Shown here in pieces: positions 26,951 through 28,477 of a DNA stretch of 64,000 bases. Position 1 is the stretch's first letter, and each line of letters starts with the position of its first letter. Under the pieces are notes generated by a model that worked only from the letters and a program-made list of their open reading frames with translations, ran no database searches and had not been told where the DNA came from. The stretch lies in NCBI RefSeq assembly GCF_055900595.2, contig NZ_CM148325.1, one strand, 5' to 3'. The translations under genes were made by a program, and so were the position numbers.

Positions 26951-28477
26951 TCAGGGCGTATAGCCCGATACCTCAACAGACGGGTTTTCCCCGGAGCGAG
27001 GCCTCTGGGGTTCATAATTAATCGTACAGCCAAAGTACCAAGCGTTCGGCCGGCTGGGCGGCAGGCTGGGCTTGCTGGTCAGTTTGTTCCAACACACATT
27101 AAGCATCTCCAGTCCGCTGGGCAGGCGGTCCGGCAGGCTGGTCAGCTGGTTATGACTCACATCAAGCACCTTCAGCCTGACGGGCAGCACCGGCAGATGG
27201 ATCAGCTGGTTATTACTCACATTAAGCGTCCTCATATAGCCGGGCAGCTCCGGCAGGCTGCTCATGAGGTTAAAACGCACATCAAGCGTCACCAGCCCGG
27301 CGGGCAGCGCCGGCAGGCCGGACAGCTGATTATTACTCACATCAAGCATCACCAACCCGGCGGGCAGCACCGGCAGGCTGCACAGATGGTTTTTACACAC
27401 ATAAAGATGCTTCAACCCGTCGGGCAGGACCGGCAGGCTGTCCAGCCAGTTTCTTCTCACATCAAGCTCCTCCAGCCCGGTGGGCAGCTCCAGCCCGGTG
27501 GACATGAAGAGATTGTTTCCACCCACATTAAGGTGCTTCAGCCCGGCGGGCAGGACAGGCAGGCTGCACAGCCGGTTTCTACTCACATCAAGCTTCTTCA
27601 GCCCGTCGGGCAGGACCGGCAGGCTGTCCAGCAAGTTTCTTCTCACATAAAGCTCCTCCAGCCCGGTGGGCAGGACCGGCAGGCTGCACAGCTGGTTTCC
27701 ACTCACATCAAGCTTCTCCAGCCCGGCGGGCAGCTCCGGCAGGCTGGTCAGCATCAGATTTGCCAGTTCTAGTTCCAGTGCCGAAGCTCTATTGCATGCT
27801 CTATTGTATATATATGCCTTCACCCTACTAAGAGCTTCTGCCCTGTTTTCCCCGGGAGCATTTACCTTGGCCCAGGCACGCCATGCCGTTATCTGGGCCA
27901 CCCAGTCCGGGACTTTATCGATATACTTCCGGAGCAGTTTACAGTGTGGTTTATCGCCAGTCAGAGTTACAGACAACGCTACTTTTGGCATACCTGGTAT
28001 GTACATTGTCATGATGGGCTCATCGACGACGGACAGGTTCAGTAAGAGCCCTATCGGCGGGTCTTCCTTTTTGGCCGGGATGGTGTAAATATTGGGATTG
28101 TCTGTGGACTCGAAGCTCAGGAACATATTTGTCAGCTGCTCACTTTTGGTCAAACATTGATCGTGAAGGAGGGAACGACAAACCATGTGGATGAAAGTTT
28201 CTTCGGATGCGTTGTGTAATATGGTTGTATAATCTGATGAGGATAAATCATCCCAGTTTTCTATCTTGCTGGTCTTGCTGTTCTTGCTGTTCTTGCTGTT
28301 CTTGCTGGTCTTGCTGGCTGCGATATCGTTTAATGAATTGTTTAATAAATCGGTTAATACATAGCCGATATGAAGACGGTTTGCTGTCTGGCTGGATTTA
28401 TCGGGTGCCCAATATTCATTTTCATTGGGTTTAACATATAAACCGGATGCGCCGGATAAAGAAGTAGGCTGGAGCAT
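26951..28477 (-). CDS. Leucine-rich-repeat protein with an IpaH/SspH-type LRR domain, a ~230-aa N-terminal extension and no NEL E3-ligase domain
   Basis: 508-aa ORF with GAGG RBS 6 nt upstream. The segment DWVAQITAWRAWAKVNAPGENRAEALSRVKAYIYNRA...LELANLMLTSLPELP matches the conserved region that precedes the LRRs in IpaH/SspH/SlrP effectors (compare IpaH9.8 DYFSAWDKWEKQALPGEERDEAVSRLKECL..., from memory). About 11-12 consecutive 20-aa LPX repeats follow (L.SLPVLPxGLxxLxVxxNx). The ORF stops right after the last repeat, and no NEL-like sequence is found in any frame for 500 bp downstream. Confidence 0.8.
   Translation of the reverse strand: MLQPTSLSGASGLYVKPNENEYWAPDKSSQTANRLHIGYVLTDLLNNSLNDIAASKTSKNSKNSKNSKTSKIENWDDLSSSDYTTILHNASEETFIHMVCRSLLHDQCLTKSEQLTNMFLSFESTDNPNIYTIPAKKEDPPIGLLLNLSVVDEPIMTMYIPGMPKVALSVTLTGDKPHCKLLRKYIDKVPDWVAQITAWRAWAKVNAPGENRAEALSRVKAYIYNRACNRASALELELANLMLTSLPELPAGLEKLDVSGNQLCSLPVLPTGLEELYVRRNLLDSLPVLPDGLKKLDVSRNRLCSLPVLPAGLKHLNVGGNNLFMSTGLELPTGLEELDVRRNWLDSLPVLPDGLKHLYVCKNHLCSLPVLPAGLVMLDVSNNQLSGLPALPAGLVTLDVRFNLMSSLPELPGYMRTLNVSNNQLIHLPVLPVRLKVLDVSHNQLTSLPDRLPSGLEMLNVCWNKLTSKPSLPPSRPNAWYFGCTINYEPQRPRSGENPSVEVSGYTP
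27030..27760. repeat. Tandem ~60-bp nucleotide repeats encoding the LRR units
   Basis: Highly similar 60-bp units recur back to back (visible also as the periodic plus-strand pseudo-ORF THIK.LQPGGQ.RQ at 27152-27772). Confidence 0.75.
28265..28318. repeat. 9-bp tandem repeat (TCTTGCTGK x6) inside the 5' part of the LRR gene
   Basis: Six perfect or near-perfect head-to-tail copies, encoding SKTSKNSKNSKNSKTSK on the minus strand; in frame. Confidence 0.85.

Follow-up and report, generated by a model that had tools for sequence, protein, structure and literature searches.

Near the 5' end of a leucine-rich repeat (LRR) gene, a short tandem repeat in a 64,000-nucleotide stretch of contig NZ_CM148325.1 (RefSeq assembly GCF_055900595.2; hereafter the window) raises the question of whether its copy number changes between isolates and, if so, what such changes do to the encoded protein. 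Tandem Repeats Finder described the array with a period of 9, 6.0 copies, 95% matches and the consensus TCTTGCTGG, and the raw plus-strand sequence reads TCTTGCTGG, followed by three copies of TCTTGCTGT and two of TCTTGCTGG. On the sense strand of the gene, the order is AGCAAGACC, three times AGCAAGAAC, AGCAAGACC and, as the last unit, AGCAAGATA, which deviates from the general form AGCAAGA[C/A]C. The units encode S-K-T, three times S-K-N, S-K-T and S-K-I, that is, residues 55–72 of the 508-residue LRR protein with one lysine per 9-bp unit, and their codon register spans 28262–28315, corresponding to nucleotides 163–216 of the 1527-nucleotide gene. A preliminary description of the window had announced six in-frame coding copies in the 5' region of this gene; number, frame and location were all confirmed, although the coordinates given there (28265–28318) lie one base too far to the right. 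The longest period-9 self-match of the array, allowing at most two mismatches, was 45 bases, and the same measure reached a maximum of 17 in shuffled versions of the window (60 mononucleotide and 60 triplet-block shuffles), placing the array far above chance expectation. An open reading frame (ORF) of 75 amino acids on the plus strand (28207–28434) reads the array as a Cys/Ser/Trp-rich tract, SCWSCCSCCSCCSCWSCW. As it is antisense to the 508-residue ORF, whose LRR domain matches SspH2 and SlrP, we treated this frame as a by-product of the repeat.

To follow the array across isolates, we extracted it from 17 complete genomes, two metagenome contigs and ∼30 database proteins, amounting to ∼50 public copies of the gene. 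The complete genomes and the window carry three, four, five, six or seven units, every one in frame, and six were also counted in each of the two metagenome contigs, the only hits when metagenomes were scanned with the left flank joined to the first unit. Across all ∼50 copies, the array comprises two to seven units in 14 protein alleles, with lengths that are all multiples of 9 and none out of frame. An identical copy number in every isolate, which would have argued against active length variation, was thus looked for and not found. On the window's own or a near-identical background, the third residues of successive units read T-I in the two-unit allele, T-N-T-I with four units, T-N-N-T-I with five and T-N-N-N-T-T-I with seven, the window itself having T-N-N-N-T-I with six, and judged from these sequences the series runs stepwise. 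Interior variant units (N from AAC, S from AGC and one R) have been expanded in blocks, as unit duplication predicts. In addition, a synonymous AGT marker unit occupies position 5 in one seven-unit locus (L008) and position 4 in another (L009), which points to gain and loss of units on either side of the marker.

As a measure of how quickly the array changes, we compared the loci of different isolates. Over ∼4.1–4.2 kb covering the whole LRR gene and the divergent ankyrin-repeat gene next to it, two draft genomes showed no single-nucleotide polymorphism (SNP) relative to the window and matched it at every base except for a single whole-unit indel in the LRR-gene array, of −36 bp in one (L022) and +9 bp in the other (L023). 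A third locus (L024) differed by one SNP, together with −18 bp in the LRR-gene array and +18 bp in a second 9-bp array that lies in the ankyrin gene. The same picture was seen at the protein level, where four database proteins with two, four, six or seven units agree at every one of the 490 residues that lie outside the array. Outside the repeats, the window and eight genomes of sequence type 485 (ST485) are separated by 0–1 SNPs; this 3.3-kb comparison takes in the N-terminal coding portion of the LRR gene, the spacer between the genes and almost all of the ankyrin gene. The same nine loci nevertheless show two alleles of the LRR-gene array and three of the ankyrin array. Together, these comparisons indicate that the array alters faster than point substitution. 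They also bear out the earlier expectation that slippage of a 9-bp unit would change protein length rather than switch expression off, as all array lengths are multiples of 9 and whole-unit indels are the sole differences between otherwise DNA-identical loci.

We next consider where the variable tract sits in the protein, which consists of an unmodelled N-terminal region (residues 1–111), a small beta/alpha domain (∼112–234), 11 LPX-type LRRs (235–480) and a short tail. In an AlphaFold2 model with a mean predicted local distance difference test score (pLDDT) of 71, the solenoid is confident from residue 235 and the beta/alpha domain from ∼112, residues 1–111 have a pLDDT below 50, and repeat residues 55–72 appear as coil between short helices at 39–54 and 80–89. 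The repeat tract is therefore probably located, according to this model, in a flexible N-terminal segment that comes before the beta/alpha domain and the solenoid.

This suggests a model in which the newly made strand slips against its template by one or more complete 9-bp units during replication (slipped-strand mispairing), so that each event would add or remove Ser-Lys-Thr/Asn tripeptides at residues 55–72. The length and the charge of the polar, positively charged N-terminal stretch would change in this way without the gene being switched on or off. As the unit equals three codons, every product stays in frame, and the array is not an on/off switch. AlphaFold2 fails to model the part of the protein that holds the tract, which precedes both the folded domain and the solenoid. 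Most length changes there would therefore probably be tolerated and nearly neutral, and their functional effect is probably small. Whole-unit mutation by such a route has been followed in serial passage of E. coli O157, where variable-number tandem repeats (VNTRs) had rates of 4.4e-5 to 1.8e-3 per generation that are ascribed mainly to slippage (PMC3777172). We give a probability of about 0.8 to the reading that the array is a coding VNTR which lies in a flexible N-terminal segment, changes by slippage and is nearly neutral, with near-neutrality as its weaker part.

Several observations weigh against this reading. The copy range is bounded at 2–7, the third position, where it varies, is still held by a polar residue (T, N or S), and the ORFs are otherwise intact. 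A bounded range and a polar residue could also result from selection on the tract, so that near-neutrality is no more than probable. Some changes span two or four units, and recombination could produce such steps as readily as slippage. Moreover, the AlphaFold2 model rests on a nine-sequence alignment, and low confidence in it is no proof of disorder. Finally, the exact six-copy protein occurs on 46 contigs, indicating that alleles last over epidemiological time and that the locus is not extremely unstable.

The neighbouring ankyrin gene offers a comparison. The preliminary description had noted an analogous 9-bp repeat at its 5' end, and this repeat is indeed present, encodes (T-T-N/K)3 at residues 17–25 and is variable, with two, three, four or five copies in other genomes, counted from loci and protein N-termini. 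The two-copy state is unchanging across more divergent haplotypes. Arrays of at least three copies, in contrast, vary among the ST485 genomes with 0–1 SNPs in 3.3 kb and recur on different LRR-array backgrounds. Constancy at two copies and variability at three or more agree with slippage whose rate varies with the number of copies. It had also been suggested that the two repeats represent a shared N-terminal feature, and this held only in part: both are polar Ser/Thr/Asn/Lys tracts that behave as VNTRs, but their units are unrelated. A common N-terminal domain of the two proteins was likewise rejected, as BLASTP of the first ∼200 residues gave no alignment even at E ≤ 100. The likeness of the two tracts thus appears to be one of composition and behaviour, not of descent. 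For the ankyrin protein, NCBIfam returned no match and Pfam returned Ank repeats alone.

Constraint on both genes may be weak, as hinted at by the ratios of nonsynonymous to synonymous substitution rates (dN/dS) and by two LRR alleles that are split by insertion sequence (IS) elements. These dN/dS estimates are based on 6–36 differences. For the N-terminal part of the LRR gene against other clade I haplotypes, the value is ∼0.6–0.7 (small counts). For the ankyrin gene between clade I haplotypes (the window against L001–L016), 21–29 of 26–36 nucleotide differences are nonsynonymous, giving a dN/dS of ∼1–1.6, which could reflect relaxed constraint but also diversifying selection; numbers this small do not discriminate between the two. 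The LRR ORF is intact in 15 of the 17 complete genomes and is split by IS21-family elements in the other two, ISEc62 in AST85 and IS100 in EC42405 (L006 ∼1929–4203; L016 ∼986–3000). The ankyrin ORF is intact in 16 of 17 and shortened to 1383 nucleotides in 2013C-4282.

What kind of protein carries the tract? Its LRRs are 11 units of 20 residues of the type LPxLPxxLxxLxV. The best family matches in NCBIfam, all of them partial and local, were SspH2 (E 2e-54), SlrP and GogB, with scores far under the curated full-length cut-offs (184.7 versus 1243 bits for SspH2 and 126.1 versus 1113 for SlrP). Pfam matched LRR families alone. As NCBIfam thus offered only sub-threshold LRR matches and Pfam only LRR repeats, naming the protein by family was rejected. 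The NCBIfam local matches to SspH2 and SlrP and the Foldseek comparison both show an LPX-type LRR domain with a preceding N-terminal helical cap. Among solved structures, Foldseek ranked SspH2, YopM (4ow2, 1g9u), SspH1 and IpaH best, with 46% identity over 278 columns for 3g06. A NEL domain and the catalytic Cys-x-Asp motif were not found by Pfam in the 508-residue protein, which ends ∼30 residues past the last LRR. Overall, the LRR domain appears to be of the type III effector kind.

The N-terminal part, on the other hand, has few relatives. A full HMMER scan of 1.84 billion representatives with the N-terminal 247 residues found E. coli copies and one NEL protein (P0017) and nothing else, and a word-indexed search with the N-terminal region returned 14 near-identical E. 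coli proteins, so these residues look almost orphan. The N-terminal domain has a single distant relative in P0017, a 767-residue protein of the NEL E3-ligase type that is 44% identical to residues 98–247; P0017 has no counterpart of residues 1–97 and hence lacks the repeat. Its gene (L018 6001–8304, GCA_910664965.1) occupies a cargo position in a lambdoid prophage, with the Q antiterminator on one side and the lysis genes (holin and lysozyme) on the other, and had no match in the complete E. coli genome set.

Selection might also make use of the tract. Tract length might act as a heritable, quickly reversible setting for recognition, export, localisation or host recognition, with the ankyrin gene tuned likewise. 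This explanation survives best among the alternatives to near-neutral slippage, although we consider it unlikely. It would account for two adjacent, divergent, eukaryote-like genes that both have variable N-terminal polar repeats, and type III secretion signals usually sit in the first 25 residues, where the ankyrin tract also lies. The LRR domain of the type III effector type, the recurrence of ankyrin alleles 3, 4 and 5 on different LRR-array backgrounds within ST485 and the mostly intact ORFs of both genes are in line with it as well. However, recurrent mutation is expected of any VNTR, the dN/dS values and the two IS-disrupted alleles fit relaxed constraint at least as well, and no secretion system for these proteins is known in the lineage.

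The last point bears on the label 'surface or secreted protein', under which the preliminary description had placed such repeats and which is an assumption for this protein. The first 25 residues of the LRR protein (MLQPTSLSGASGLYVKPNENEYWAP) show no hydrophobic core by direct reading. Such an N-terminus, together with the low pLDDT of residues 1–111, would suit a type III signal without being diagnostic of one. At the ETT2 site of the ST485 strain Z0117EC0005 (one genome inspected; L021, the locus cited with the island and ETT2 observation, is NZ_CP098223.1 3812184–3814838), ETT2 is deleted, and nothing lies beside tRNA-Gly except a ygeQ fragment, an IS3 element and one hypothetical gene. None of the 465 clade I strains surveyed in PMC10100065 carried eaeA or ipaH, and ST485 isolates from GEMS were PCR-negative for canonical pathotype genes (PMC13064198). 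From this one site and these two papers, no injectisome was found for the lineage, and no whole-genome search for other secretion systems was made. A more specific version holds that clade I may keep an effector-like pair, an IpaH-type LRR protein without NEL and an ankyrin protein, in the absence of known injectisomes, and that the N-terminal in-frame repeats serve as graded 'volume controls', quantitative rather than on/off, which tune a so far unrecognised export route or behaviour in the host cell. We regard this version as speculative and somewhat less probable still.

Recombination or gene conversion between units or alleles, such as RecA-dependent unequal exchange, could replace slippage as the main mechanism. 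The 60-bp LRR units of the same gene are duplicated or deleted as blocks (6–14 units), which is typical of unequal recombination, and the multi-unit steps in the 9-bp array (−4 units in L022, ±2 in L024) and the L008/L009 marker shift could reflect exchange or conversion. Arrays of 27–63 bp, however, represent very short homology for RecA, the DNA-identical backgrounds carry no sign of allele import, single-unit intermediates exist and slippage is the mechanism preferred for short units in work on E. coli VNTRs (PMC3777172), so that this route seems highly improbable as the main one. Least credible of all are an assembly or sequencing artefact, for which one could cite that repeats can mis-assemble and that the LRR part is collapsed in several short-read drafts (for instance P0001, 366 residues), and a phase-variation switch: the arrays are only 18–63 bp and thus shorter than one Illumina read, the same alleles occur in independent assemblies (the six-copy protein on its 46 contigs), the GEMS genomes are hybrid Illumina and Nanopore assemblies (PMC13064198) and the differences are exact multiples of 9 with interior marker units kept, while a switch would require either that slippage shifts the frame or that the tract lies in a promoter, and neither is the case here.

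The genes and repeats discussed here are listed in Table 1.

Table 1. Repeats and genes of the locus, with positions in the window.
Feature	Position	Strand	Basis
9-bp coding VNTR in the LRR gene, six head-to-tail units	28264–28317	minus-strand gene	Tandem Repeats Finder, raw sequence, codon mapping
LRR protein gene, 508 amino acids	26951–28477	−	ORF list, NCBIfam, Pfam, AlphaFold2, Foldseek
LRR-coding array, 60-bp (20-residue) units, 11 LRRs in the window	27074–27753	−	Tandem Repeats Finder, period 60/120
12-bp in-frame repeat (PSLP-PSRP), C-terminal tail, two copies in the window	27047–27071	−	Tandem Repeats Finder, period 12; translations
Ankyrin-repeat gene, 654 amino acids from the ATG at 29179 (start used by RefSeq for orthologues), divergent from the LRR gene	29179–31143	+	ORF, Pfam Ank_2
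Second 9-bp coding VNTR, ACTACAAAT three times, in the ankyrin gene	29226–29252	+	Tandem Repeats Finder

With head-to-tail copies at one locus, whole-unit differences between isolates and change that is faster than in the surroundings, the array is by behaviour a typical bacterial coding VNTR and a new example of a well-known phenomenon; the current understanding of tandem repeats is not overturned. Slippage-driven tetranucleotide or homopolymer tracts at the contingency loci of Haemophilus and Neisseria lie in genes and shift the frame, thereby turning them on or off. In contrast, the 9-bp unit studied here is a multiple of three, lies at codons 55–72 inside the ORF, and is out of frame in none of the ∼50 alleles, which sets it apart from a phase-variable contingency locus. 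In EspF and TccP/EspFU of enteropathogenic and enterohaemorrhagic E. coli, in-frame repeats also differ in number between strains, but those units of ∼47 residues are each a functional binding module, whereas the unit here has three low-complexity residues and no known partner.

The VNTRs used in multiple-locus VNTR analysis (MLVA) of E. coli O157:H7 (Vhec, TR and O157-n) resemble the array in having short head-to-tail units and whole-unit changes far above point mutation, with unit lengths of 6 and 7 bp at the loci treated there (PMC3777172). Unlike those loci, the array resides in a gene that only 17 of 5426 complete E. coli genomes carry and that apparently occurs in cryptic clade I alone. 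We found no MLVA scheme that includes it; a literature text search for the DNA and peptide repeat returned nothing relevant, and no publication mentioning the array was found. Where the rest of the locus is the same in isolates of a globally spread clone, clade I ST485, both 9-bp arrays and the number of LRR units still tell them apart. These features might therefore allow an emerging group of human intestinal pathogens to be typed at high resolution, and use as a strain marker is the clearest likely application.

The closest architecture is that of YopM of Yersinia, which is likewise a solenoid of LPX-type 20-residue LRRs without NEL. YopM isoforms are described as differing in LRR number between strains while their tails are conserved (PMC4161239). 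This variation parallels the 6–14 LRR units of the gene studied here, but the N-terminal 230 residues of its product are unrelated to YopM. To our knowledge, no such 9-bp microrepeat exists in the YopM N-terminus; YopM itself is exported by the Ysc injectisome. The closest match in sequence and structure is the LRR domain, including the helical cap, of the NEL E3-ligase effectors IpaH, SspH1, SspH2 and SlrP. The protein here, lacking NEL and Cys-x-Asp and scoring below the cut-offs, resembles this family but is not a member of it. This raises the question why effector-like LRR and ankyrin neighbours, both with variable N-terminal tracts, are present in a lineage without a recognised injectisome.

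The window is part of an E. coli chromosome, from hipBA to the ydeN/gadC region, and its host strain belongs to Escherichia cryptic clade I. The core genes in 20 kb of flanking DNA share 99.9% identity with a handful of genomes and 95–99% with the remainder. Carriers of the LRR gene are apparently restricted to cryptic clade I, as every carrier that PMC13064198 and PMC10100065 allowed to be phylotyped is clade I. Nearest carriers include GEMS isolates of cryptic clade I, ST485, OND:H45 (PMC13064198), and the carriers EC42405 and 2013C-4282 are clade I as well (PMC10100065). The LRR and ankyrin genes lie on an island at ∼25200–32200, between hipBA and a fimA-like operon, which has a lower GC content outside the LRR-coding part and is flanked by fragments of helix-turn-helix, IS481 and hydrolase genes. 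Literature on an E. coli LRR/ankyrin effector pair near hipA was searched for, and nothing relevant was found.

The LRR gene varies at three repeat scales (9, 12 and 60 bp), and the frame is never lost. Unit-by-unit comparison of 16 intact orthologues gave 6–14 LRRs among complete genomes, always as whole 20-residue units. Even within the ST485 genomes with 0–1 SNPs in the flanks, 9, 11, 12 and 13 LRRs occur, including a perfect duplication of the first unit. The collapse of the LRR region that P0001 shows is frequent in short-read drafts. The 12-bp repeat of the C-terminal tail has three copies in L008 and L009 (PSRPPSRPPSRP). Directly upstream of the 9-bp array in the gene, an imperfect 12-bp repeat (28325–28359, minus strand; 2.9 copies, 82% matches) encodes LLNN-SLND. 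This repeat is identical in all orthologues examined, unlike the 9-bp array. Lastly, one 95-residue database protein (P0016) has the start of the S-K array fused straight to the C-terminal tail (…AASKTS/LPPSRPNAW…; window 28262–28315 and ∼27060–27080). The junction stretch, CCAGC, lies inside a 10-bp match, GACCAGCAAG, common to the array and codons 466–469, and the protein looks like the product of a deletion of nearly the whole gene between short identical stretches, which could be real or an assembly artefact.

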